Positions 766-64,000 of a DNA stretch of 64,000 nt are shown here, in pieces. The stretch comes from Escherichia coli. Lineage in GTDB: Bacteria > Pseudomonadota > Gammaproteobacteria > Enterobacterales > Enterobacteriaceae. The notes beneath the pieces were generated by a model. That model had not been told where the DNA came from, searched no databases, and worked only from the letters and a program-made list of their open reading frames with translations. Location: the NCBI RefSeq assembly GCF_016026235.1, contig NZ_CP065613.1; one strand, written 5' to 3'. How positions within the stretch are numbered: position 1 is the first letter of the stretch; every line of letters starts with the position of its first letter. Made by a program: the position numbers and the translations under genes.

Positions 766-1503
766 ATGACGTTAACTGCTTCATCTTCTTCCCGCGCTGT
801 TACGAATTCTCCTGTGGTTGTTGCCCTTGATTATCATAATCGTGATGCCGCGCTGGCCTTTGTCGACAAGATCGACCCACGCGATTGTCGTCTGAAGGTC
901 GGCAAAGAGATGTTTACATTGTTTGGGCCACAGTTTGTGCGCGAACTTCAACAGCGTGGTTTTGATATCTTTCTTGACCTGAAATTCCACGATATCCCCA
1001 ACACTGCAGCGCACGCTGTCGCTGCTGCAGCTGACTTAGGCGTGTGGATGGTGAATGTTCATGCCTCTGGTGGGGCGCGTATGATGACCGCAGCGCGTGA
1101 GGCACTGGTTCCGTTTGGCAAAGATGCACCGCTTTTGATTGCTGTGACAGTGTTGACCAGCATGGAAGCCAGCGACCTGGCCGATCTTGGCGTGACACTG
1201 TCACCTGCAGATTATGCAGAACGTCTGGCGGCACTGACGCAAAAATGTGGCCTTGATGGTGTGGTGTGTTCTGCTCAGGAAGCTGTGCGCTTTAAACAGG
1301 TATTCGGTCAGGAGTTCAAGCTGGTTACGCCGGGCATTCGTCCGCAGGGGAGTGATGCTGGTGACCAGCGCCGCATTATGACGCCAGAACAGGCGTTGGC
1401 GGCTGGTGTTGATTATATGGTGATTGGTCGCCCGGTAACGCAATCGGTAGATCCAGCGCAGACGCTGAAAGCGATCAACGCCTCTTTACAGCGGAGTGCA
1501 TGA
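766..1503 (+). CDS. pyrF: Orotidine-5'-phosphate decarboxylase
   Basis: ORF 706..1503; likely true start at the internal ATG (MTLTASSSS...), giving ~245 aa; OMP decarboxylase signature VVVALDY...[10 protein letters not shown]. Confidence 0.93.
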
Positions 1504-1829
1504 TGAGTGATTCCAACAGCCGTCTGGTCTACTCAACGGAAACCGGACGTATTGATGAGCCAAAAGCGGCCCCAGTACGCCCTAAAGGCGATGGTGTGGT
1601 GCGTATTCAGCGTCAGACCAGTGGACGTAAAGGTAAGGGCGTTTGCCTGATTACCGGTATCGATCTCGATGATGCCGAACTGACAAAACTTGCAGCGGAA
1701 CTGAAGAAAAAATGCGGCTGCGGCGGAGCAGTTAAAGATGGAGTTATTGAAATCCAGGGCGATAAGCGTGATTTATTAAAATCACTACTTGAAGCGAAAG
1801 GGATGAAGGTAAAACTCGCAGGCGGTTAA
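1503..1829 (+). CDS. yciH: SUI1/eIF1-like translation factor YciH
   Basis: ORF 1500..1829 ([11 protein letters not shown]...); start overlaps the pyrF stop (ATGATGA), suggesting translational coupling. Confidence 0.9.
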   Translation: MSDSNSRLVYSTETGRIDEPKAAPVRPKGDGVVRIQRQTSGRKGKGVCLITGIDLDDAELTKLAAELKKKCGCGGAVKDGVIEIQGDKRDLLKSLLEAKGMKVKLAGG

Positions 1830-1834
1830 CATAA

Positions 1835-1860
1835 AAAGCCACGGATATATCCGTGGCTTT
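1835..1860. terminator. Bidirectional intrinsic terminator between yciH (+) and osmB (-)
   Basis: Perfect hairpin AAAGCCACGG-ATATAT-CCGTGGCTTT; followed by a T-run on the minus strand (osmB side) and TTCGAATATTTT on the plus side. Confidence 0.65.
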
Positions 1861-1954
1861 CGAATATTTTACTGTGTGTATTATTCAGTTATTTCGTACT
1901 GAACAGAATCAAGCGTATTATAATTGCGAGTCGATAATCGACATTTATTTACGA

Positions 1955-2173
1955 TTATTTACCGACCTGGTGACCAATAACACCACCGACAGCTGCGCCA
2001 CCTAATGTACCCAACGTACTGCCATCGGTCAGTACTGCACCGCCTAATGCCCCTGCACCCGCGCCGATTGCGGTGTTGCGGTCCCGTTTAGACCAGTTAG
2101 AACAGGCACTCAGAGACATTGCCAGGGTAATTGCCAGAACAGCCGCGGTCATTTTTTTGCTCGTTACAAACAT
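1955..2173 (-). CDS. osmB: Osmotically inducible lipoprotein OsmB
   Basis: 72 aa; lipobox LSAC after the signal peptide; glycine-zipper rich mature region. Confidence 0.93.
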   Translation of the reverse strand: MFVTSKKMTAAVLAITLAMSLSACSNWSKRDRNTAIGAGAGALGGAVLTDGSTLGTLGGAAVGGVIGHQVGK

Positions 2174-2441
2174 AATACTCTCTCCTGAATTTATGATTCA
2201 CGGAAGTAAGCTCTCTATAACTATAATAGCTAAGAATAAGCCTGGTGAAATTATTCCGTGAAATCCGCTCGCGCGCAGGGTTATATCACGCAGGTGATAA
2301 TGACTTCCTGTTATATCGCTGATAATAATTTTATATCTTGAGAGTGTTAATAACAGGTAAATAGTCTTAATTATCAACCAGGAATCATCTTAGAGCGGAT
2401 GATTTGCCAAACTGCAAATCATCCGTAGAGAAGGGAAATGG

Positions 2442-3191
2442 TTAAATGTCAACGACGTGAACGGTGAGTTTACTGTGCTCAAGATGCATCAGATCGCTGG
2501 CGCGTATTTTCGAATCGGTAATCACGCGATTGAATCGCTCAACGGGACCGATGGAGTATGAATGTACAGCACCAAATTTCGAGCTGTCAGTCAGGACTAT
2601 CGCTTCGCACTCTTTTTCCAGCACGGCATTGACCACATCGGTACGCATCATATCGCGACCGGTGAATCCAGTTTCAGGTTGCCAGCCATCAATACCAATA
2701 AATGCTTTGCTGAAATGCACCTGCTGGATGCACTGGCGTGTCAACGGGCCAACCATACTTTCGCTTTTTTTCTGGTACATGCCACCGAGCAAAATGACTT
2801 CACAAGGCGCGTCTTTCAGCAAATGCGCGATGTAGCTGCTGACCGTGATGATAGTGACATTTTTCTTCTGCTCCCCCAGAGTCCGGGCGAGCAGGGCATT
2901 GCTGCTGCCATTTTCGATAAAGATGGTTTCGCCCGGTTGAACCAGTGACGCGGCAAACTCGGCGAGTTCACGCTTCAGCGTATAGTTGCTCATCATACGG
3001 GTTTCGACGTCATCACTATCAAGCGAAACTGCAAAGCCATGTGCACGGCGGAGGTAACTCAGTTTTTCGAGGGTGTTGAGATCCTGGCGAATGGTAACTT
3101 CAGAAACTCCAGTGGCTTTTGCCAGATCGGTTACGCTAACCTGACCCTGGTCAATGACCATCTGTAGAATAGTTTGTTGTCGGGAATTCAT
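2442..3191 (-). CDS. yciT: DeoR-family transcriptional regulator YciT
   Basis: 249 aa; N-terminal HTH (QQTILQMV...[20 protein letters not shown]) plus DeoR C-terminal sugar-binding domain. Confidence 0.9.
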
Positions 3192-3280
3192 CGCTGTAAT
3201 TCTTATAACGTTATAATACTAAATAAAAAAATACTGACGCGCCGGGCATCCTCAAATAGGAAAACCTGAAGGCACGATTG

Positions 3281-3463
3281 TTAAATCTCCCACGGTGCCT
3301 TCGGGATGTCTGGCGTAGATTCAGCAACCTGGCGCAAGAGTTCTGCTTTAAGTATCTCGAGATTATGGATCGCAGAGTGGTAATCGCCTGCCACAAGGAT
3401 ATCTAACACAATATCAATACGTTCGGCAACGCGCTGGGCATCAAATTCAGACATCAAGGACAT
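3281..3463 (-). CDS. yciZ: Small protein YciZ (UPF0509 family)
   Basis: ORF 60 aa; true start possibly the internal Met (MSEFDAQRV...) at 3454. Confidence 0.7.
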
Positions 3464-3601
3464 CCTTATAGCAAAAGGGGGAAAATGAATAATGCAAAAA
3501 TTGCCGCTAAAAGAGAAGTGTTTAACAGCAACGGCTAATTATCATCCAGGAATACGATATATAATGACGGGATATAGCGCTAAGTATATATATTCATCTA
3601 C

Positions 3602-5587
3602 TTATGCGCGCTTCAGATAGCGTTTATACCAGCGTTCGAAGGCGACGGCGGGCATCGGTTTGGCAAACAAAAATCCTTGCCGCTCATTGATCCCGTTCTT
3701 GGTTAAAAAAGCATCTTCCTTTGCACTCTCTACACCTTCGGCGATCACCTGAAGATTCAATGCCTGGGCCACAGCGACGATCGCCCGGACCAGTGACTGC
3801 GAGACAGGTTGTTTGTGAATATCTCGAACAAAAACCTGGTCAAGTTTGATGGCATCGATCGGAAAGCGCGCCAGTTGCGAAAGTGAAGAGTAGCCGGTAC
3901 CAAAATCATCCAGATGCACTTGCGCACCTAGTTGGCTAAATTGTTGAATAACAGACAGTGCCAGTTCATCATTCTCAATCAGACAACTCTCTGTCAGTTC
4001 AACATCTATAGGGCAGTATTCAAAATTGAGTTCCTGGAGAACCTGTTTCAGGGCGGTGAAAATGGTTTGATCGGCGAGCTGACGTGCAGAAATATTTACC
4101 GCCACTCGCAGGTTTATGCCTTTATCCCGCCACTTTGCCACCTGGCGTACGACATCGAGAATCACCCAACGGCCTAAAGGCACAATTAGCCCTGACTCTT
4201 CGGCGTAGGAAATGAAGTCCAACGGTGGAATCAACCCACGTTCAGGTGACTGCCAACGTACTAGTGCTTCCAGACTGCGCACTTCGCCACGCCAGGTGAT
4301 TTTCGGTTGATAGTGAATAACCAACTGATCGTTTTCCAGTGCTTTACGCAAGTTGGTATCCAGCCAGAGATATTCAAATACCCGCTGATTCATTTCTGGA
4401 GTAAAAACGCAAAATTGTCCTCGTCCGCCTTCCTTCGCTGTGTACATTGCTGTGTCGGCGTGACGAATAATAGTCGCGCTGTCCGAACCATGTTCGGGAG
4501 AGAGCGAAATACCTACTGAACAGCTGGTATAAACTTCAATTAAACCAATACGAAAGGGGAGGCGTAAGCGGGTCAAAATTCGTGATGCCATTGCTTCCAG
4601 CGCGCTTTGTGAGGTATTGGATGCCAGTACCAGAAACTCATCGCCACCTGGACGCGCCAACACCTGGTCATGTTCGAGACAGCTTAAAATAGCCAATGAC
4701 ACGTCGCGTAATAACTGGTCACCAAACAAATGCCCATAGGCGTCGTTGACCTTTTTAAAATTATCCAAATCAAGATACACAACCCCAACTTTATTGTTAT
4801 CTGCCTGATTAATAGCGTGATCGATTAACTCCTGCATTGCGTTACGATTCGGCAGTCCGGTGATACTGTCGGTATTTGCCAGAATACGCAGTCGCTCCTG
4901 AGCGCGGCGCTCTTCGGTAATGTCGGTACCGGAACAGATTAAAAAAATCTCGTTTTTGCCACTGCCGCTGTGGACAAATTTATTGCGAAACAGAAACAGC
5001 CGCTGGCCTTTACGTGTTGGTATCCACAGTTCGACTTCATATGCATTGCCGCTTCGAAAAAATACACGGTTATTGCGCCTGGATGCCGCAGCTTCACGAC
5101 GGCTCATAAACAGTTTAAACACGCTTTGCCCAATGACGTCGTGTTCTTTCAACCCTGTGTAATCTTCACATAACCGATTGAAGCGTTGGATATTCCCCCG
5201 GCTGTCGAGAATCACTATTGCGGAATGTGCTTCAGAAACTACCTGCTCAGCAAAGGAAAGCCCGTGTGATAAATCACGAGCAACCGCCGGTGTGTCATGC
5301 CATGCAGACGCGTTGCCAGCCCATTCCCGTTTATTGATTTTTCGTCCTACCAGATGCACAGAAAGATCGCTTTCATCGACGGTCAGACTCATCATCAGGC
5401 TGGAGGTGATGACCGTCATTTCCCTGATGCGAGCAGCCTGTTCGGCAGATAACTGCAATGTACGATCAGGTTCTGTGGTTTCGGTGGTAGAAAAGCGCAA
5501 AACATCGCTGCTTTCCGTCAACCGCCAGTATGGATTGTGCGATCCGAGAAAGTTGTACAACGTTGTGGACTCCCTAACGGTTTTCAT
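3602..5587 (-). CDS. pdeR: c-di-GMP phosphodiesterase PdeR (PAS-GGDEF-EAL)
   Basis: 661 aa; degenerate GGDEF region followed by an EAL domain (EVLARW...DDFGTGYSSL). Confidence 0.9.
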   Translation of the reverse strand: MKTVRESTTLYNFLGSHNPYWRLTESSDVLRFSTTETTEPDRTLQLSAEQAARIREMTVITSSLMMSLTVDESDLSVHLVGRKINKREWAGNASAWHDTPAVARDLSHGLSFAEQVVSEAHSAIVILDSRGNIQRFNRLCEDYTGLKEHDVIGQSVFKLFMSRREAAASRRNNRVFFRSGNAYEVELWIPTRKGQRLFLFRNKFVHSGSGKNEIFLICSGTDITEERRAQERLRILANTDSITGLPNRNAMQELIDHAINQADNNKVGVVYLDLDNFKKVNDAYGHLFGDQLLRDVSLAILSCLEHDQVLARPGGDEFLVLASNTSQSALEAMASRILTRLRLPFRIGLIEVYTSCSVGISLSPEHGSDSATIIRHADTAMYTAKEGGRGQFCVFTPEMNQRVFEYLWLDTNLRKALENDQLVIHYQPKITWRGEVRSLEALVRWQSPERGLIPPLDFISYAEESGLIVPLGRWVILDVVRQVAKWRDKGINLRVAVNISARQLADQTIFTALKQVLQELNFEYCPIDVELTESCLIENDELALSVIQQFSQLGAQVHLDDFGTGYSSLSQLARFPIDAIKLDQVFVRDIHKQPVSQSLVRAIVAVAQALNLQVIAEGVESAKEDAFLTKNGINERQGFLFAKPMPAVAFERWYKRYLKRA

Positions 5588-9095: not shown

Positions 9096-9884
9096 TTATT
9101 TCAATTCGAGTTCGTTCATTGCAGCGATGCTGAAACCGCCGTCAACGTGGACCACTTCACCGGAGATACCGGCAGAGAGATCGGAGCACAGGAATGCCGC
9201 AGAGTTACCCACATCTTCAATAGTAACGGTACGGCGAATCGGGGTAACGGCTTCGCAATGAGCCAGCATTTTGCGGAAGTCTTTGATGCCGGAGGCCGCC
9301 AGAGTACGGATCGGACCAGCAGAGATGGCGTTAACACGCACACCTTCCGGACCCATCGCGTTCGCCATATAGCGCACGTTCGCTTCCAGAGACGCTTTTG
9401 CCAGACCCATAACGTTGTAGTTCGGGATAGCGCGCTCAGCGCCAAGGTAGGAAAGGGTCAGAAGGGCAGAACCCGGATTCAGCATGGAGCGGCAAGCTTT
9501 TGCCATTGCAACGAAGCTGTAGGAGCTGATGTCGTGGGCAATTTTGAAGCCTTCACGGGTAACGGCGTTAACATAGTCACCATCCAGCTGATCGCCAGGT
9601 GCAAAACCAATAGAGTGTACGAAACCGTCAAATTTCGGCCAAACTTTCCCCAGTTCAGCGAACATGGTGTCGATGCTGGCATCTTCTGCAACATCGCACT
9701 GCAGAACGATGTCAGAACCCAATTGAGCGGCAAATTCTTCTACGCGGCCTTTCAGTTTGTCGTTCTGGTAGGTGAATGCCAGTTCAGCTCCTTCGCGGTG
9801 CATCGCCTGAGCGATACCGTAGGCGATGGACAGTTTGCTGGCAACACCGGTTACCAGAATGCGCTTACCGGAAAGAAAACCCAT
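9096..9884 (-). CDS. fabI: Enoyl-[acyl-carrier-protein] reductase (NADH)
   Basis: 262 aa; [28 protein letters not shown]... SDR fold with the FabI Tyr/Lys active-site region. Confidence 0.95.
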
Positions 9885-10024
9885 AGCTTTAATCCTTATT
9901 GTTGATGCTTGTTGTGCCTGAAAATCAGGCGATTCGTCGTTTTAGTAAACAGTACGAACAGATAAACGGTTATTATAATCAACCTGGCTGTGAGTGGCTA
10001 TAGCTGCCAGGTCCGACCGGAGCA

Positions 10025-10306
10025 GGGTGCGGGCAGGGTGGGCGCTTTTCCCCTCACCCTAACCCTCTCCCCAGAGGGGCGAGGGGACCGTATTGTGCAA
10101 ATATTGTCACCCCAGCAACAAACAGGCTTATACAGCCCCCTAACCCTTTCAGGGCGTTGGCTGGGGTGAGAGTGAATGGTGGTTCAGACCTTGCCGAATA
10201 TTCTTCATCATCCGCCTCCATGTTTTCACCACAACAGCTATTCGGCTCGGTCGGCCCCCTCGCCCTTTCAGGGAGAGGGTTGGGGTGAGGGTGACCGGCG
10301 GTTCAG
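10025..10306. repeat. Three copies of a ~55 bp GC-rich hairpin repeat (Box C-like) between fabI and ycjD
   Basis: Copy 1 ~10025-10088 (CCCTCACCCTAACCCTCTCCCCAGAGGGGCGAGGGG); copies 2 (~10136-10190) and 3 (~10253-10306) are direct repeats of each other and the inverse of copy 1; each is internally palindromic. Confidence 0.6.
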
Positions 10307-10633
10307 TTCCTGCAGAATAATCTCCAGCACCGCCTCCTCATTACAATCAATCTCGTTATTCCAGAAACGCAGCACGGTCCAGCCCTGCGACTCAAGCCAG
10401 CTAGTGCGCCTGGAATCATAGGCAACTGCCAAATCATGCTGCCCACCATCCAGCTCAACGACTACACGCGCCGAGCAGCAAGCAAAATCGAGAATGTAGC
10501 TCCCCACCGGATGTTGACGGCGAAATTTGAAATCACCAAAACGTCGGCTGCGAAGATATCGCCAGAGCTTTCGTTCCTGCAAAGTGAGATTGCGTCTTAA
10601 ATCACGCGCATTTGATTTTATTTTATCCATCAC
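10268..10633 (-). CDS. ycjD: DUF559 (Vsr-like endonuclease fold) protein YcjD
   Basis: 121 aa ORF; the C-terminal codons (RRSPSPQPSP) are encoded by repeat copy 3. Confidence 0.8.
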   Translation of the reverse strand: MMDKIKSNARDLRRNLTLQERKLWRYLRSRRFGDFKFRRQHPVGSYILDFACCSARVVVELDGGQHDLAVAYDSRRTSWLESQGWTVLRFWNNEIDCNEEAVLEIILQELNRRSPSPQPSP

Positions 10634-10700
10634 CTCATTCTGACAAGATTTAATCTCTTGTCAGAATGAGGTGAATAATCTGGAAGGAGGATTCAGAAAA

Positions 10701-11507
10701 TTAGCGATCTTTACGCCACGCATCCGCCGTCAATGCCTCGCCAAAATGACCGGCAATCAGCCGTTTGGTGAGTTCATGCAGCGGCGATGCCAGCACATCC
10801 GCGGTGCTGCCTCGCTCGACAACCTCGCCCTGATGCATCACCAGCACCTGGTCGCTAATGTGCTTCATCATTCCGATATGCTGGGTAACATAAATATACG
10901 AAATGCCCTGTTTTTCCTGTAATTCCAGCATCAGATTAATCAACTGCGAACGCATCGACATATCCAGTGAAGCGAGGGCTTCATCGGCAATAATGACTTT
11001 TGGGCGCAATATCAGCGCGCGCGCCAGACCCAGACGCTGTTTTTGCCCGGGGGCCAACATATGCGGATAGTAACTGACGTGATCCGGTAGCAGCCCAACC
11101 ATACGCATCGTTTCAATAATCTGTTTGCGACGCTGTTCCGGTTCCAGGTTGGTGTTCAGGCGCAGTGGAAAATCCAGAATTTGCGAGATACGTTGACGGG
11201 GATTCAACGAGGTCGAAGGATCCTGAAAAATCATGCGAATACGCTGACTGCGGAAGGAATAATCGCCAAAATGCAGTGGATGATCGTCAATCAATAACTC
11301 GCCGCTGGTAGGCTCTATCATTCCCGCCAGCATTTTTGCCAGCGTGGATTTACCCGAACCATTCTCGCCAATAATCGCCAGTGTCTGGCCTTCACGTAGC
11401 GTAAAGCTCAAGGGTTTTACCGCTTCTACGGTCTGACGACGAAACCAGCCGGTCCGGTAGCGGAACGTTTTACTTAAATTACGCACTTCAAGCAGCGTTT
11501 CGATCAT
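10701..11507 (-). CDS. sapF: Peptide/putrescine ABC transporter ATPase SapF
   Basis: 268 aa; Walker A GENGSGKST, ABC signature and Walker B. Confidence 0.9.
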   Translation of the reverse strand: MIETLLEVRNLSKTFRYRTGWFRRQTVEAVKPLSFTLREGQTLAIIGENGSGKSTLAKMLAGMIEPTSGELLIDDHPLHFGDYSFRSQRIRMIFQDPSTSLNPRQRISQILDFPLRLNTNLEPEQRRKQIIETMRMVGLLPDHVSYYPHMLAPGQKQRLGLARALILRPKVIIADEALASLDMSMRSQLINLMLELQEKQGISYIYVTQHIGMMKHISDQVLVMHQGEVVERGSTADVLASPLHELTKRLIAGHFGEALTADAWRKDR

Positions 11508-16294: not shown

Positions 16295-16540
16295 TTACTC
16301 ATTACCCCATTGATTCAAAAACTCTGCGATCTCATCAATGCGTACGGGATTAATCCCCGCTTCAGCAGCCATTTCATGTTGGGCTTCTTCGCTGATCTCT
16401 TCATTGTTCATCAAACGGGTGAGCAGTAACTGGAAGTAGTGGGCCAGCGGTGTGCGTTCAGCCTCTGCGACAGGCTCTGCGCATTCGGTCGCGTACTCAT
16501 CGGCAATATCAAAATATTTTAGCGGGATATCGTGGTTCAT
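16295..16540 (-). CDS. ymjA: Small acidic protein YmjA (DUF2543)
   Basis: 81 aa [22 protein letters not shown]... Confidence 0.8.
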
Positions 16541-54628: not shown

Positions 54629-55203
54629 CACTACTTGCTGATACATTAATTTAATTCTTCTCTTAACGTATTCTCAGTTCCTTTCAACGTTTTGGTTATT
54701 TTTTATTCTTCGTACAATGGCGACAGATGCTGATTATGATACCGAAAACTGGTTTGAACGTGTGAAGCCCGAACGTAGTGTTCGGTGTTCTATGTGCTTT
54801 GCCGCATTTTGGCGTCTATTATTTACACTAAATCTGATTTAATATATTGATACATAAAACATTTTATGTTTCCTGTGTCACTTTTTTGATGGAAGTTGTT
54901 TGCATTTCTTTAAGGCGAAACAAATAATTACGCATCAATTTTAATGTCGGTTAGAGGGAAACTTATGAAGCACTCTGTTTCAGTCACGTGTTGTGCGCTG
55001 TTGGTCAGCAGCATTTCTCTTTCGTATGCTGCAGAAGTTCCGAGCGGCACAGTACTGGCAGAGAAGCAGGAGCTGGTGCGCCACATTAAAGATGAGCCTG
55101 CGTCGCTGGATCCCGCTAAAGCCGTGGGCCTGCCAGAGATTCAGGTCATTCGCGATCTGTTTGAAGGACTGGTGAATCAGAACGAGAAAGGGGAGATTGT
55201 CCC

Positions 55204-56496
55204 CTGAGGAATCCCCAGAAAACAAGACAGGCATAGTGAGATGTGATCTAATTGATTGTGCTAACAATTTCAAGGAGATCACCACTATGCCTGCACGTTC
55301 ATTATGCCAAAATTTCCTTAACAATATACTGGCCCCTTTGCATCTTTACCGTCAAAAATCACTGATTGACGCAACTAATGCTGTAATAAATGGCGCTTCC
55401 CTCACACTTACCAGTATCGGGCGTCATTTAACCGGTACGGCATCAGTTAAAAACAAAATAAAGCGGGTGGATCGACTGTTGGGGAATCGACATTTGCAAA
55501 ATGAGGTTTCCACCATTTTTCAGCGAATTACCCAAAAGATTACGCGGGGAATGTCTCGTGTTGTGATACTCATTGACTGGAGTGCTTATCATGCCTCTCG
55601 TTTTCAGCTTTTGCGGGCAAGCCTGGCATGTGACGGGCGTTCTTTACCGTTGATGAGTTGTGTCGTTCCATCATCACAGACAGCGAATGCAGATGTACAT
55701 GAGCGTTTTCTGGAATCGCTTGCTGAGTGCTTTTCCCCGGGACTGATGTCATTGTTATTACAGATGCCGGTTTTCAGGGGCGATGGTTCCAACAGCTCCG
55801 CTCCCGTGGCTGGACCTATATTTGCCGGGTACTGGGCAATCATTATTACAATGTTGGTAATGGCTGGGAAAAGGTGTCGGACTCAGGCACAAAAGCATCA
55901 ACGACAGCAATTTATTTAGGTGAAGGCCTGCTGGGTCGAGATAAAAATGCACAACATGAAGGGCATTTTTATCTTTATAAAAGTAAGCCTAAAGGTCGTA
56001 GATTTAAACGCTCGAAGGAAAGAGCAACCAGACCATCGGTGACGGCTAAAGCTCGTACTGCCGGGAAATCACCATGGTTTATTTTCACAAACAGTACTGA
56101 GTTCTCGCCAAAACAGGTAATGAAATTATACAGCCGTAGAATGCAAATTGAGCAAAATTTCAGGGATGAAAAAAATCCTCGCTGGGGATTTGGACTACGG
56201 TTTGGTGCCAGTCATTCATCCGGGCGGGTCACGGTATTGAGTCTGATCGCAACATTAGCCAGTATCATTATGTGGTTAAGCGGTTTCAGCCTGGAAAACA
56301 AAGGGATACATCATAAATATCAGGCAAATACAGTGAAGCACAGGCGAGTCATCTCGTTATTAAAACTGGCGGAGAATGTGATTCGACATTCTCCACTCAT
56401 ACTAAACACACTGTCACTTGACGCAGGGCTGAAAGTTCTACAGCAACGGTATACCAATATGATAATGGTTTACTAAATTTTCTGGGGATCCCTCAG
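55204..56496 (+). mobile_element. IS10-like (IS4-family) insertion sequence, copy 1 (1293 bp)
   Basis: Terminal inverted repeats CTGAGGAATCCCCAGAAAA / TTTTCTGGGGATCCCTCAG; flanked by direct repeat AGATTGTCC(C). Confidence 0.9.
55287..56476 (+). pseudogene. IS10-like transposase, frameshifted (copy 1)
   Basis: Reading frame splits into ORFs 55197..55919 and 55727..56476; C4 run at 55735-55738 where copy 2 has C5. Confidence 0.85.
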
Positions 56497-57931
56497 AGAT
56501 TGTCCCCGGCGTTGCGACTCAGTGGAAAAGTAATGACAACCGTATCTGGACTTTTACCCTGCGCGATAACGCAAAATGGGCGGATGGCACACCGGTAACG
56601 GCGCAAGATTTTGTCTACAGCTGGCAACGTCTGGTGGACCCGAAAACGCTATCGCCATTTGCATGGTTTGCCGCGCTGGCGGGAATCAACAACGCACAGG
56701 CGATTATTGATGGTAAAGCTACGCCAGACCAGCTTGGCGTCACCGCAGTTGATGCCCATACTTTGAAAATTCAGCTTGATAAACCGTTGCCGTGGTTTGT
56801 GAATTTAACCGCTAACTTTGCCTTCTTCCCGGTGCAAAAAGCCAACGTAGAAAGCGGTAAAGAGTGGACGAAACCCGGAAATCTGATCGGCAATGGCGCT
56901 TATGTTCTTAAAGATCGCGTAGTCAATGAAAAACTGGTCGTGGTACCGAATACCCATTATTGGGATAACGCCAAAACGGTGCTGCAAAAAGTGACTTTCC
57001 TGCCAATTAATCAGGAATCCGCAGCCACTAAGCGTTACCTCGCGGGGGATATTGATATCACCGAATCCTTCCCGAAAAATATGTATCAGAAGCTGTTGAA
57101 GGATATTCCGGGGCAGGTTTATACGCCGCCGCAGCTCGGGACCTATTATTATGCGTTTAACACGCAAAAAGGGCCGACGGCAGATCAGCGCGTTCGCCTG
57201 GCATTAAGTATGACGATAGATCGCCGCCTGATGACCGAAAAAGTGTTGGGAACGGGCGAAAAGCCAGCGTGGCATTTTACACCAGATGTTACCGCCGGAT
57301 TTACGCCGGAACCTTCGCCGTTTGAACAAATGAGTCAGGAAGAACTGAATGCGCAGGCAAAAACTTTGTTGAGCGCAGCTGGTTATGGTCCGCAAAAACC
57401 GCTGAAGCTGACGCTTTTGTATAACACTTCAGAAAACCATCAAAAAATTGCGATTGCTGTAGCATCGATGTGGAAAAAGAACCTTGGCGTAGATGTTAAA
57501 TTGCAAAATCAGGAATGGAAAACCTATATCGATAGCCGTAACACCGGCAATTTTGATGTTATCCGCGCCTCGTGGGTGGGGGATTATAATGAACCCTCCA
57601 CTTTCCTGACATTATTAACGTCAACGCATTCAGGAAATATTTCACGCTTTAACAATCCGGCATACGACAAAGTTCTGGCCCAGGCATCGACGGAAAATAC
57701 CGTTAAAGCGCGTAATGCCGATTACAACGCGGCAGAAAAAATCCTCATGGAGCAAGCACTGATTGCACCAATTTATCAATATACCAATGGACGATTAATC
57801 AAGCCGTGGCTGAAAGGTTATCCCATTAATAACCCGGAAGATGTGGCGTACAGCCGGACTATGTATATTGTGAAGCATTGATGTGATGGGAACTGGCGTT
57901 ACCCTTGTGGATAACGCCAGTGATGTCTGAT

Positions 57932-62078: not shown

Positions 62079-62112
62079 CCGTTCTCTCTTAAGACAAACG
62101 TGGGTAAATCCC

Positions 62113-63406
62113 CTGAGGAATCCCCAGAAAACAAGACAGGCATAGTGAGATGTGATCTAATTGATTGTGCTAACAATTTCAAGGAGATCACCACTATGCC
62201 TGCACGTTCATTATGCCAAAATTTCCTTAACAACATACTGGCCCCTTTGCATCTTTACCGTCAAAAATCACTGATTGACGCAACTAATGCTGTAATAAAT
62301 GGCGCTTCCCTCACACTTACCAGTATCGGGCGTCATTTAACCGGTACGGCATCAGTTAAAAACAAAATAAAGCGGGTGGATCGACTGTTGGGGAATCGAC
62401 ATTTGCAAAATGAGGTTTCCACCATTTTTCAGCGAATTACCCAAAAGATTACGCGGGGAATGTCTCGTGTTGTGATACTCATTGACTGGAGTGCTTATCA
62501 TGCCTCTCGTTTTCAGCTTTTGCGGGCAAGCCTGGCATGTGACGGGCGTTCTTTACCGTTGATGAGTTGTGTCGTTCCATCATCACAGACAGCGAATGCA
62601 GATGTACATGAGCGTTTTCTGGAATCGCTTGCTGAGTGCTTTTCCCCCGGGACTGATGTCATTGTTATTACAGATGCCGGTTTTCAGGGGCGATGGTTCC
62701 AACAGCTCCGCTCCCGTGGCTGGACCTATATTTGCCGGGTACTGGGCAATCATTATTACAATGTTGGTAATGGCTGGGAAAAGGTGTCGGACTCAGGCAC
62801 AAAAGCATCAACGACAGCAATTTATTTAGGTGAAGGCCTGCTGGGTCGAGATAAAAATGCACAACATGAAGGGCATTTTTATCTTTATAAAAGTAAGCCT
62901 AAAGGTCGTAGATTTAAACGCTCGAAGGAAAGAGCAACCAGACCATCGGTGACGGCTAAAGCTCGTACTGCCGGGAAATCACCATGGTTTATTTTCACAA
63001 ACAGTACTGAGTTCTCGCCAAAACAGGTAATGAAATTATACAGCCGTAGAATGCAAATTGAGCAAAATTTCAGGGATGAAAAAAATCCTCGCTGGGGATT
63101 TGGACTACGGTTTGGTGCCAGTCATTCATCCGGGCGGGTCACGGTATTGAGTCTGATCGCAACATTAGCCAGTATCATTATGTGGTTAAGCGGTTTCAGC
63201 CTGGAAAACAAAGGGATACATCATAAATATCAGGCAAATACAGTGAAGCACAGGCGAGTCATCTCGTTATTAAAACTGGCGGAGAATGTGATTCGACATT
63301 CTCCACTCATACTAAACACACTGTCACTTGACGCAGGGCTGAAAGTTCTACAGCAACGGTATACCAATATGATAATGGTTTACTAAATTTTCTGGGGATC
63401 CCTCAG
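62113..63406 (+). mobile_element. IS10-like (IS4-family) insertion sequence, copy 2 (1294 bp, intact)
   Basis: Same terminal repeats as copy 1; flanked by direct repeat GGTAAATCC(C); same orientation as copy 1. Confidence 0.9.
62196..63386 (+). CDS. IS10-like DDE transposase (IS4 family)
   Basis: 396 aa; motifs IKRVDRLLGNRHL, ITDAGF, YSRRMQIEQNFRD, YQANTV match IS10 transposase blocks; SD AAGGAG 9 nt before the ATG. Confidence 0.88.
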   Translation: MPARSLCQNFLNNILAPLHLYRQKSLIDATNAVINGASLTLTSIGRHLTGTASVKNKIKRVDRLLGNRHLQNEVSTIFQRITQKITRGMSRVVILIDWSAYHASRFQLLRASLACDGRSLPLMSCVVPSSQTANADVHERFLESLAECFSPGTDVIVITDAGFQGRWFQQLRSRGWTYICRVLGNHYYNVGNGWEKVSDSGTKASTTAIYLGEGLLGRDKNAQHEGHFYLYKSKPKGRRFKRSKERATRPSVTAKARTAGKSPWFIFTNSTEFSPKQVMKLYSRRMQIEQNFRDEKNPRWGFGLRFGASHSSGRVTVLSLIATLASIIMWLSGFSLENKGIHHKYQANTVKHRRVISLLKLAENVIRHSPLILNTLSLDAGLKVLQQRYTNMIMVY

Positions 63407-63554
63407 GGTAAATCCCCGGACCTATCGGCAGACCAACAAGATACCACGCCAGCAACATCAGCAGCCATACCACCAAAAAGATAAGCGGATAGGGCAAGAC
63501 TAACGAATAGTAAGTACCCAGTTTCGCGTCTGGTTTGTCGCAGTCTGATAGCAT
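63348..63554 (-). CDS. Small hydrophobic ORF whose native C-terminus is replaced by IS-derived codons
   Basis: ATG at 63552-63554 (MLSDCDKPDAKLGTYYSLVLPYPLIFLVVWLLMLLAWYLVGLPIGPGIYP...); the frame runs into the IS end at 63406; without the IS it would end ...GIYPRLS ~10 bp before the ogt start; no clear SD. Confidence 0.25.
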   Translation of the reverse strand: MLSDCDKPDAKLGTYYSLVLPYPLIFLVVWLLMLLAWYLVGLPIGPGIYPEGSPENLVNHYHIGIPLL

Positions 63555-64000
63555 AAAGCGATTTTTTGATTTTTCTGCCTGAAGAAATGAGGGCAAGCCA
63601 TCACATGGATCGAGGGTGGGATAATTCCAGTCAGTGAAATTTTACCGTAGGCTATCTGTTATTTGATTCTGTGGCGTGATAGCCGCCAGACACCACTGAA
63701 CTCGTCACTCATTCCCCAATCCCGGCGAGAATGTGGTTATTTACAGAGCTAAAAATGAATAAAAAATAGAGCCTGTCGACATCCGCCAGACTCTACAGTA
63801 CACACAGCAGTGCATCCTCGTCTTAAATCCGGCCTGGGGTCCTTGTGACCGGTGACAGTGTTATAACGGTTTTACCCATCCGTTGCCAATTTTCTTCAGT
63901 GACAGATTTCACGAAAATATAAGTTAAATCATTTGTCTTGTGATTGCATAATCATGCATCGTTAATCGACGAGTAAATTTACCGGGCGAGTAGCCCGTTC

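Follow-up and report, generated by a model that had tools for sequence, protein, structure and literature searches.

Interruption of the murein tripeptide-binding protein gene mppA by ISEc60 at a recurrently occupied GGGG(N7)CCCC site in Escherichia coli

Why should an E. coli chromosome carry a broken gene for murein tripeptide uptake together with intact genes for the enzymes that process the tripeptide, and does the break reflect selection or the target preference of a mobile element? The locus that raises this question lies in a 64,000-nucleotide stretch of DNA (assembly GCF_016026235.1, contig NZ_CP065613.1), which was analysed as a whole and is hereafter called the window. An original prediction placed mppA at 54965-57881 and held it to be broken by an insertion sequence (IS) after about 80 codons; both the start and the stop coordinate are correct, and the break falls after exactly 80 codons, where ISEc60 begins at 55205. 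The parts of the interrupted gene are:

54965-55204, plus strand: mppA 5′ fragment, 240 nt or exactly 80 codons, comprising a 22-aa signal peptide and 58 mature residues
55190-55204: G4N7C4 target motif GGGG-AGATTGT-CCCC (GGGGAGATTGTCCCC), 15 bp, mppA codons 76-80
55193-55204 (left) and 56496-56507 (right): target-site duplication GAGATTGTCCCC, 12 bp, direct, perfect at both junctions
55205-56495, plus strand: ISEc60 copy 1, IS4 family, 1,291 bp, interrupting mppA
55205-55222 and 56478-56495: terminal inverted repeats of copy 1, TGAGGAATCCCCAGAAAA and TTTTCTGGGGATCCCTCA, imperfect, 18 bp with one mismatch
56496-57881, plus strand: mppA 3′ fragment, codons 77-537 and stop, open throughout

The reading frame opens at the ATG at 54965 and closes on a TGA donated by the first bases of the element (55205-55207), and the earliest in-frame start in the 3′ fragment beyond the IS is a GTG at 56634 (codon 123), from which an undamaged ORF of 415 codons runs without a signal peptide. 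Due to the stop after codon 80 and the position of the next possible start at codon 123, the gene is to be regarded as a pseudogene and not as a functional member of its family; having neither a start upstream of codon 123 nor a signal peptide, the 3′ part would yield no periplasmic binding protein, and a single polypeptide with signal peptide and complete binding fold is not encoded. Public annotation already marks this allele as a pseudogene. When the flanks are joined in silico minus one duplicate, a 1,614-nt ORF of 537 aa is restored without stop or frameshift, which differs from intact E. coli mppA by 14 nt and two amino acids, E216D and P498L, the latter a private change in the 3′ fragment. 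The rebuilt mature protein is identical at 513 of 515 residues to crystallised E. coli MppA (PDB 3O9P/4TOZ), scoring 1174.8 bits against 540 bits for OppA, and the chromosomal position pgrR-mppA-ynaI is conserved in synteny with annotated E. coli genomes. On this sequence evidence the disrupted gene is mppA, an SBP_bac_5 member and paralogue of OppA, and not OppA itself. The allele has been met elsewhere: the window is identical over 7,248 bp, bar one base, to an independent NCTC assembly (L025, UGFA01000002.1), RMDEC364 carries the identical mppA allele, the same 3′ fragment is present in five draft assemblies whose contigs break at the IS, and 677 public contigs, with E. coli or S. flexneri as their label, encode an identical 80-aa stub product.

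The genes on the near side of mppA are arranged as follows.

47673-48638, plus strand: ycjG, L-Ala-D/L-Glu epimerase, 321 aa, intact, 2 substitutions relative to the reference
48613-49341, minus strand: mpaA, murein tripeptide amidase, 242 aa, intact, 100% identical to WP_000219122.1
49632-50270, minus strand: SDR-family oxidoreductase, full-length counterpart of K-12 ymjC, intact
50871-52319, plus strand: ISEc20, IS110-like, transposase 51098-52294, inserted in a C-run
52671-53591, minus strand: ycjY-type alpha/beta hydrolase, first gene of the reported ycjY...mpaA operon, intact, 4 substitutions
53729-54628, plus strand: pgrR (ycjZ), LysR-type regulator of peptidoglycan recycling, intact, identical to the reference

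That mpaA and ycjG remain intact, as originally predicted, is borne out by their full-length ORFs and by their equivalog models, which MpaA matches at 478.9 bits (NF007897, cut-off 157, residues 1-236 of 237) and YcjG at 677.5 bits (NF011708, cut-off 343, residues 1-321 of 321). Their description as downstream genes stands in the pathway sense and fails physically, mpaA and ycjG lying 5.6-7.3 kb upstream of mppA, beyond pgrR. ISEc20 has entered between ycjY and the SDR-mpaA pair, whose coding strand is the minus strand, and breaks a second alpha/beta-hydrolase gene into 50291-50870 and 52320-52671. As mpaA is reported to close the ycjY-ymjDC-mpaA operon, which PgrR controls (PMC5934670), the reported operon is split upstream of mpaA, in its middle gene, and mpaA may for this reason be intact at the ORF level only. 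A consensus scan of 49200-53800 for an mpaA promoter of its own below ISEc20 returned nothing above shuffled expectation, and an Rfam scan of the whole window matched McaS alone, tying no RNA element to the mppA locus.

ISEc60, a name taken from the RefSeq annotation of identical elements, is present in the window a second time:

62114-63405, plus strand: ISEc60 copy 2, 1,292 bp; transposase intact, 396 aa, 62196-63386
62102-62113 and 63406-63417: target duplication of copy 2, GGGTAAATCCCC, 12 bp

Copy 2 lies within an abgT 3′ remnant adjoining ogt, is 99.85% identical to copy 1, and its transposase matches the IS4-family model NF033591 at 360.5 bits (cut-off 152). The transposase gene of copy 1 (55287-56476) has lost 1 bp from a run of Cs near position 55734 and is thereby frameshifted relative to both copy 2 and the NCTC assembly; since a single homopolymer base is involved and the NCTC sequence, otherwise the same, retains it, a sequencing error may account for the change. 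Copy 2 could in addition supply transposase activity in trans. The element is multicopy: the window holds it twice, FDAARGOS_943 has it at 38 places, and the comparison loci L015-L024 show it at many distinct sites. Elsewhere it is carried by large plasmids, both in Shigella dysenteriae and in E. coli strains such as CFSAN029787. The idea that ISEc60 is a variant of IS186 was considered and rejected, since the BLASTP match between the two spans just 22 residues around the Y-R-E region. The literature searched mentions ISEc60 in resistance surveys only and describes no target preference there.

What does the insertion point itself tell us? The mppA motif is the sole G4N7C4 site in the IS-free 61.4-kb window, and both this site and the window's sole AT-core GGGN5CCCC site are occupied. 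A motif of the form 5′-GGGG(N6/N7)CCCC-3′ is the documented hot spot of IS186, which inserts there in both orientations, and the K-12 genome holds only 35 N7 sites of this kind (PMC5009759). IS186 ends, CATAAGCGCTAACTTAAGGGTTG, are indeed found at the same mppA site in other genomes (L004-L008 and L010-L012). Among 5,426 complete E. coli genomes, IS186/IS421 occupies the site in five (by junction searches; orientations split 1 vs 4), in which RefSeq annotation places an IS421 transposase between mppA fragments, and ISEc60 occupies it in two, in the window's orientation in RMDEC364 and in the opposite one in FDAARGOS_943, making 7/5,426 occupied by an IS in all. At least four independent insertions have taken place at this site. 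The original prediction did not recognise the site as one that IS elements hit repeatedly. The literature searched makes no mention of IS186 together with mppA, and mppA is not named in the main text of PMC5009759. In related assemblies the mppA locus has received insertions of IS1, IS186 and IS3-family elements and has undergone inversions mediated by IS elements.

Among the 5,426 complete E. coli genomes, the best flank identity to the window is that of FDAARGOS_943, at about 99.9%, and each of the two carries one private non-synonymous mppA change. Common descent of their insertions was weighed and not retained as the simplest reading, since both ISEc60 copies are inverted at both sites with their duplications intact, a configuration that homologous recombination between direct repeats cannot produce. 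Across the 14 sampled flanks, drawn from few genomes, ISEc60 duplications have G at position 1 in 13/14 and C at positions 11-12 in 14/14 around an AT-rich core, giving a G-rich...C-rich target pattern of roughly GGGG-A-W-T-T-C-C-C-C.

We thus favour, with a probability of about 0.88, the reading that the mppA null allele arose by simple transposition of ISEc60 into the 15-bp GGGG(N7)CCCC motif at codons 76-80; it is an ordinary IS pseudogene and an ordinary gene knock-out. The element has inserted cleanly, bounded by its inverted repeats and the 12-bp duplication and leaving the remainder of mppA undamaged, at a site that is targeted repeatedly: IS186/IS421 and ISEc60 have distantly related transposases, yet both elements are found there in other genomes, each in both orientations. 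Most simply, mppA would have been lost incidentally as the IS spread to a rare target that it prefers, MppA being under weak selection, and not because the loss itself was selected. With the rest of the gene intact, precise excision between the 12-bp repeats could in principle restore it.

The physiological cost can be gauged from published work on E. coli. According to PMC3173086 and PMC10622912, the OppBCDF permease functions with OppA and with MppA, and according to PMC3173086 OppA does not support Mtp transport. From this literature OppA would be the only binding protein left to the Opp permease, as originally predicted; opp itself, like ampG, mpl and ldcA, lies outside the window. The tripeptide also enters the cytoplasm via AmpG followed by cytoplasmic processing, AmpG alone giving near-wild-type recycling, and a delta-mppA mutant shows neither a growth defect nor a transcriptome change (PMC10622912). 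With mppA disrupted, free peptidoglycan tri- and tetrapeptides would no longer be handed to OppBCDF and the scavenging of released or exogenous murein peptides would be lost, while bulk recycling via AmpG would probably go on, feeding Mpl, MpaA and YcjG. Intact MpaA and YcjG beside a dead mppA are accordingly no paradox, as the AmpG route also supplies tripeptide. Going by the published E. coli work, a mild phenotype would be expected, in which free peptidoglycan peptides are no longer scavenged with high affinity, and the laboratory growth phenotype should be negligible.

Could the loss nevertheless have been advantageous, the IS being merely the instrument? In an IS-rich, probably host-restricted or invasive Escherichia/Shigella lineage, inactivation of mppA might alter leftover NOD1-active tripeptide, avoid toxic tetrapeptide recycling or block harmful peptide uptake. 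Such pathoadaptive loss would fit the repeated knock-out of mppA by at least four independent IS events, the spread of the stub allele over 677 contigs, the residence of ISEc60 otherwise on large plasmids of E. coli and Shigella dysenteriae, and the private non-synonymous changes in the window and FDAARGOS_943, which are consistent with relaxed constraint. It would also fit laboratory observations: when ldcA is missing, mppA disruption sweeps to dominance, and cells lacking the permease shed NOD1 agonists, which MppA/Opp-proficient cells clear away (Simpson et al., 2023, PMC10622912, who do not state the kind of mppA-disrupting suppressor mutations). Against this, every recurrent event falls within the same 15 bp, a sequence for which a transposase preference is documented, and the reconstructed alleles carry no other type of inactivating mutation, bar a secondary IS1 in L007. 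The recurrence is real yet restricted to one IS hot spot, and recurrence confined to a preferred site with no other inactivating type is the signature of mutational bias and not of selection. Disruption of the site is moreover rare in E. coli proper (the 7/5,426 genomes above), delta-mppA alone has no phenotype (PMC10622912), and the literature searched links mppA loss to neither Shigella nor EIEC adaptation and nowhere treats mppA, in a relevant way, as an IS target or a pseudogene of Shigella. On balance we consider selected loss unlikely.

A bolder version would make the mppA motif a contingency site where IS186-type elements repeatedly, and perhaps reversibly, turn off the scavenging of peptidoglycan peptides, with null alleles benefiting host-restricted or invasive lineages by changing how much NOD1-active tripeptide escapes or by sparing them toxic tetrapeptide recycling, and would further suppose that the IS186 and ISEc60 transposases have converged on G4...C4 recognition; this is speculative, and we give it little credence.

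Residual or conditional function is a still fainter prospect. A start within the IS or inside the gene might drive expression of the undamaged 415-codon ORF from GTG 56634, or precise excision might be frequent enough to sustain a functional subpopulation and turn the insertion into a reversible switch; the 12-bp direct repeats, along with the inverted repeats at the termini, would be a substrate of host-mediated excision and the intact transposase copy 5.6 kb away a possible helper. A product beginning at codon 123, however, has neither signal peptide nor the N-terminal part of domain I and hence no periplasmic binding role; IS4-family elements normally excise precisely only at very low frequency, and within the lineage two independent assemblies as well as five drafts have the insertion fixed. 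An assembly or sequencing artefact, in which an IS copy was misplaced into mppA during repeat collapse or resolution, is scarcely credible: IS elements are a classic source of misassembly and one homopolymer base does differ between the window and the NCTC assembly, but the 12-bp duplication is perfect at both junctions, the same junctions stand in the independent 4.56-Mb NCTC contig, whose near-identity to the window together with the shared 3′ fragment of the five drafts, likewise breaking at the IS, speaks for a real insertion, and RMDEC364 has the identical allele.

With simple transposition of ISEc60 as the preferred reading, the loss of mppA as a knock-out matters little, given that its deletion brings no growth defect and that AmpG carries the bulk of recycling. 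A natural null may still be of interest for host sensing, as MppA/Opp-proficient cells strip NOD1-stimulating muropeptides from mixed cultures (PMC10622912). Of wider relevance is the site: perfect IS186 target motifs number just a few dozen in the E. coli genome, and mppA holds one of them and has been struck repeatedly, so that where mppA is lost recurrently in Shigella/EIEC-type genomes or in evolution experiments, mutational bias should be discounted before selection is inferred. ISEc60 has a strong palindromic G-rich...C-rich target of its own, and matching sites have apparently been filled independently, in either orientation, in related strains. Such independent filling of the same sites can mimic shared ancestry in IS-based typing.

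How does the locus compare with known systems? The closest parallel is the IS186 hot spot, one instance of which SaiSree and colleagues reportedly described in 2001 as an insertion in the lon promoter of E. coli B. In their mutation-accumulation lines, Lee et al. (2016, PMC5009759) documented hot-spot insertions of IS186 in fimA and menC. Like these sites, the mppA target is a perfect G4N7C4 motif that is occupied elsewhere by IS186 itself, in both orientations, and the duplication at mppA covers the core and part of the G/C flanks; unlike them, its occupant in the window is ISEc60, with a 12-bp duplication and a transposase that resembles that of IS186 in the C-terminal Y-R-E region only. A second parallel is offered by laboratory mppA null mutants of E. 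coli K-12, which Park and colleagues are said to have obtained in 1998. The window's allele shares with the K-12 nulls of Simpson et al. (2023, PMC10622912) the gene affected and the predicted loss of OppBCDF-dependent uptake and scavenging with the AmpG route spared. It differs from the K-12 nulls in being a natural allele of an IS-rich genome and not a clean deletion, and in lying near an mpaA operon that is also broken, by ISEc20. A third parallel is IS-driven pseudogene formation, a general phenomenon in Shigella and enteroinvasive E. coli. As in those genomes, several IS families have settled here within 14 kb (ISEc60 twice and ISEc20 once), and metabolic as well as transport genes are disrupted.

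First, the lesion in mppA has a simple anatomy. The locus retains the standard E. coli order (tyrR-tpx-ycjG-mpaA-SDR-hydrolase-ycjY-pgrR-mppA-ynaI-ynaJ-uspE-fnr-ogt), with pgrR identical to the reference, and the features concerned are these.

47673-48638, plus strand: ycjG, two substitutions
48613-49341, minus strand: mpaA, 100% identical to intact annotated MpaA
About 50871-52319: ISEc20 (IS110-like), transposase 51098-52294 on the plus strand, inserted at a C-run of the second alpha/beta-hydrolase gene
55205-56495: ISEc60 copy 1, 1,291 bp, with terminal inverted repeats and a target duplication
62114-63405: ISEc60 copy 2, 99.85% identical to copy 1

The original prediction that an IS interrupts mppA after about 80 codons is borne out to the base: the ORF from 54965, which encodes the MppA N-terminus (MKHSVSVTCC...), runs for 240 nt and closes on the TGA with which the inserted element begins. 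Its product comprises the signal peptide and 58 mature residues, and the earliest in-frame start codon past the IS is the GTG at 56634 (codon 123), so any 3′ product would be cytoplasmic and lack part of domain I. Once the element and one duplicate are deleted in silico, a 1,614-nt ORF returns with no stop or frameshift, differing from intact E. coli mppA by 14 nt and 2 aa; its mature product is identical to crystallised MppA (3O9P) at 513/515 residues and scores 1174.8 bits against it, versus 540 bits against OppA.

Second, the empty site (AAA-GGGG-AGATTGT-CCCC-GGC) is a perfect 5′-GGGG(N7)CCCC-3′, a motif described as the highly specific target of IS186 (Lee et al. 2016, PMC5009759). Only 19 (N6) and 35 (N7) K-12 loci carry it, and single sites are hit repeatedly, in either orientation (PMC5009759). 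The 80-residue MppA stub recurs on 677 indexed contigs with an E. coli or S. flexneri label, and among the ten longest places listed, eight have IS186 and two ISEc60 at the mppA site, IS186 being recognised there from its ends CATAAGCGCTAACTTAAGGGTTG and its 370-aa transposase. Junction searches across 5,426 complete E. coli genomes returned IS186 (annotated IS421) in five, split one to four between the two orientations, and ISEc60 in two, RMDEC364 in the window's orientation and FDAARGOS_943 in the opposite. Since both elements occur in both orientations, at least four independent events have struck one 15-bp sequence. Because the only similarity between their transposases is a short match near the C-terminal Y-R-E region, IS186 and ISEc60 are two different elements with a similar target preference.

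The preference of ISEc60, an element named "IS4-like element ISEc60" where identical copies are annotated in RefSeq, can be read from its flanks. The element ends in 18-bp inverted repeats with one mismatch (TGAGGAATCCCCAGAAAA / TTTTCTGGGGATCCCTCA), and copy 1 sits between perfect 12-bp direct duplications of GAGATTGTCCCC. Fourteen distinct flanks, sampled from the window, FDAARGOS_943 and ten further loci, yield duplications that include GAGATTGTCCCC, GGGGAATTCTCC, GGGAAATTCTCC, GGGGATAATTCC, GGGGATTTTCCC, GGGTAAATCCCC and GGCGAGTTCCCC, with G at position 1 in 13/14, C at positions 11-12 in 14/14 and an A/T-rich core. Of G4N7C4 and AT-core GGGN5CCCC sites the IS-free 61.4-kb window has one each, the former in mppA and the latter in the abgT remnant, and each is occupied. 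A sequence at 16346, GGGATTAATCCC, is similar to the consensus target of ISEc60 but carries no insertion. The ISEc60 termini themselves contain GGGGATCCC / GGAATCCCC, which resemble the target consensus, and two copies stand head to tail, 12 bp apart (GGGGATTTACCC), in GCA_031665585.1 (JARKNL010000002.1, about 1014437-1018931; retrieved as L016 and L017).

Copy 2 encodes an intact 396-aa transposase (360.5 bits against a cut-off of 152 for the IS4-family model) and could act in trans. The copy-1 transposase is frameshifted by a 1-bp deletion in a C-run at about 55734 (CCCC, versus CCCCC in copy 2), which may be a homopolymer sequencing error, because the otherwise identical NCTC assembly reads CCCCC, or a real, inactivating frameshift. 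Copy 2, with its duplication GGGTAAATCCCC (whole site 62102-63417), lies within the last codons of abgT, of which about 125 bp are left beyond it (63418-64000 region); abgTBA-abgR is missing, and FDAARGOS_943 shares the same deletion end over 286 bp. The McaS/IsrA sRNA gene (63758-63853, minus strand; RF00115, 108.8 bits) was the only match in an Rfam scan of the whole window.

The two copies form direct repeats bracketing 'mppA-ynaI-ynaJ-uspE-fnr-ogt. FDAARGOS_943, about 99.9% identical in its flanks, carries ISEc60 at the same two sites with both copies flipped and duplications intact. In the retrieved loci compared, the copies lie as follows.

9706-10997 and 17524-18815 of L003: ISEc60 copies
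4241-5532 of L009 and L013: ISEc60, the segment between the two sites inverted

On the simplest reading, insertions in related strains would have gone independently into the same small set of preferred targets, in random orientation. In two IS186-bearing, Shigella-like-looking relatives (L006 and L008, about 1431-3664) pgrR is split by an IS3-family element, and in L007 (6769-7466) the mppA 3′ fragment has acquired a further IS1; in those lineages the pgrR-mppA locus as a whole is thus in decay.

Third, one may ask whether mppA loss is selected and pathoadaptive. Such selection would be compatible with the mechanistic account and we consider it improbable: all events share one transposase-preferred target motif, the reconstructed alleles hold no other type of inactivating lesion bar the secondary IS1 in L007, and the mppA site is seldom disrupted in E. 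coli proper (7/5,426 genomes), so that recurrence alone is no argument for selection. An assembly artefact is excluded, because over 7,248 bp NCTC assembly UGFA01000002.1 differs from the window by a single base and five draft assemblies contain the same mppA 3′ fragment. Returning to targeted insertion, the gene is otherwise undamaged and its few lineage-private changes (only P498L in the window, G204R in FDAARGOS_943), tiny as these numbers are, fit a recent event with selection on mppA now relaxed. The mppA reading frame would be restored if the element excised precisely between the 12-bp repeats, an event expected to be very rare.

Fourth, the consequences are probably modest. MppA is the peptidoglycan-peptide-specific partner of OppBCDF, and MppA/Opp acts as a high-affinity scavenger that imports freed peptides only; AmpG by itself is enough to bring recycling back to a near-wild-type level, a delta-mppA mutant shows neither growth defect nor transcriptome change, and MppA/Opp-proficient cells can clear NOD1-activating muropeptides released by non-recyclers (PMC10622912). 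OppA is unable to mediate transport of murein tripeptide (PMC3173086). Drawing on this published E. coli MppA/Opp/AmpG work, we expect the strain to be deprived of free murein peptide scavenging but otherwise largely unaffected. The window spans roughly rnb-fabI-sap-puu-psp-ycjM..V-ompG through to ogt and opp lies outside it, so it is from the literature that OppA is predicted to be the one Opp partner left; with these caveats, the observation is confirmed and its interpretation, loss of MppA-dependent import, supported.

The companion claim that mpaA and ycjG are intact holds at the ORF level, by reference identity and end-to-end matches to NCBIfam equivalog models far over cut-off. Cytoplasmic tripeptide also arises from AmpG-imported anhydro-muropeptides and should keep MpaA and YcjG supplied, which makes their retention unremarkable. 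Absent from the original prediction was ISEc20, which lies between ycjY and SDR-mpaA and breaks up the second alpha/beta-hydrolase gene. The PgrR regulon includes ycjG, ycjXF-tyrR and ycjY-ymjDC-mpaA (PMC5934670); transcripts initiated at the ycjY promoter could reach mpaA only by reading through the 1.45-kb element, and a polar effect is possible. A consensus promoter scan upstream of mpaA gave nothing informative. The insertion and its flanks are identical in O145:H28 and O55:H7 genomes and FDAARGOS_946, and its presence at the same spot elsewhere suggests site-specific, IS110-type targeting.

Finally, searchable literature yielded neither a mention of mppA as an IS186-type hot spot nor a description of the ISEc60 target preference. 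Both add a little to what is known but do not amount to a novel type of system: at this locus mppA is a pseudogene of a familiar sort, produced by IS insertion into an IS-rich Escherichia/Shigella genome, whose mppA fragments are already flagged partial in public annotation, and its site fits the published rule for IS186 hot spots.
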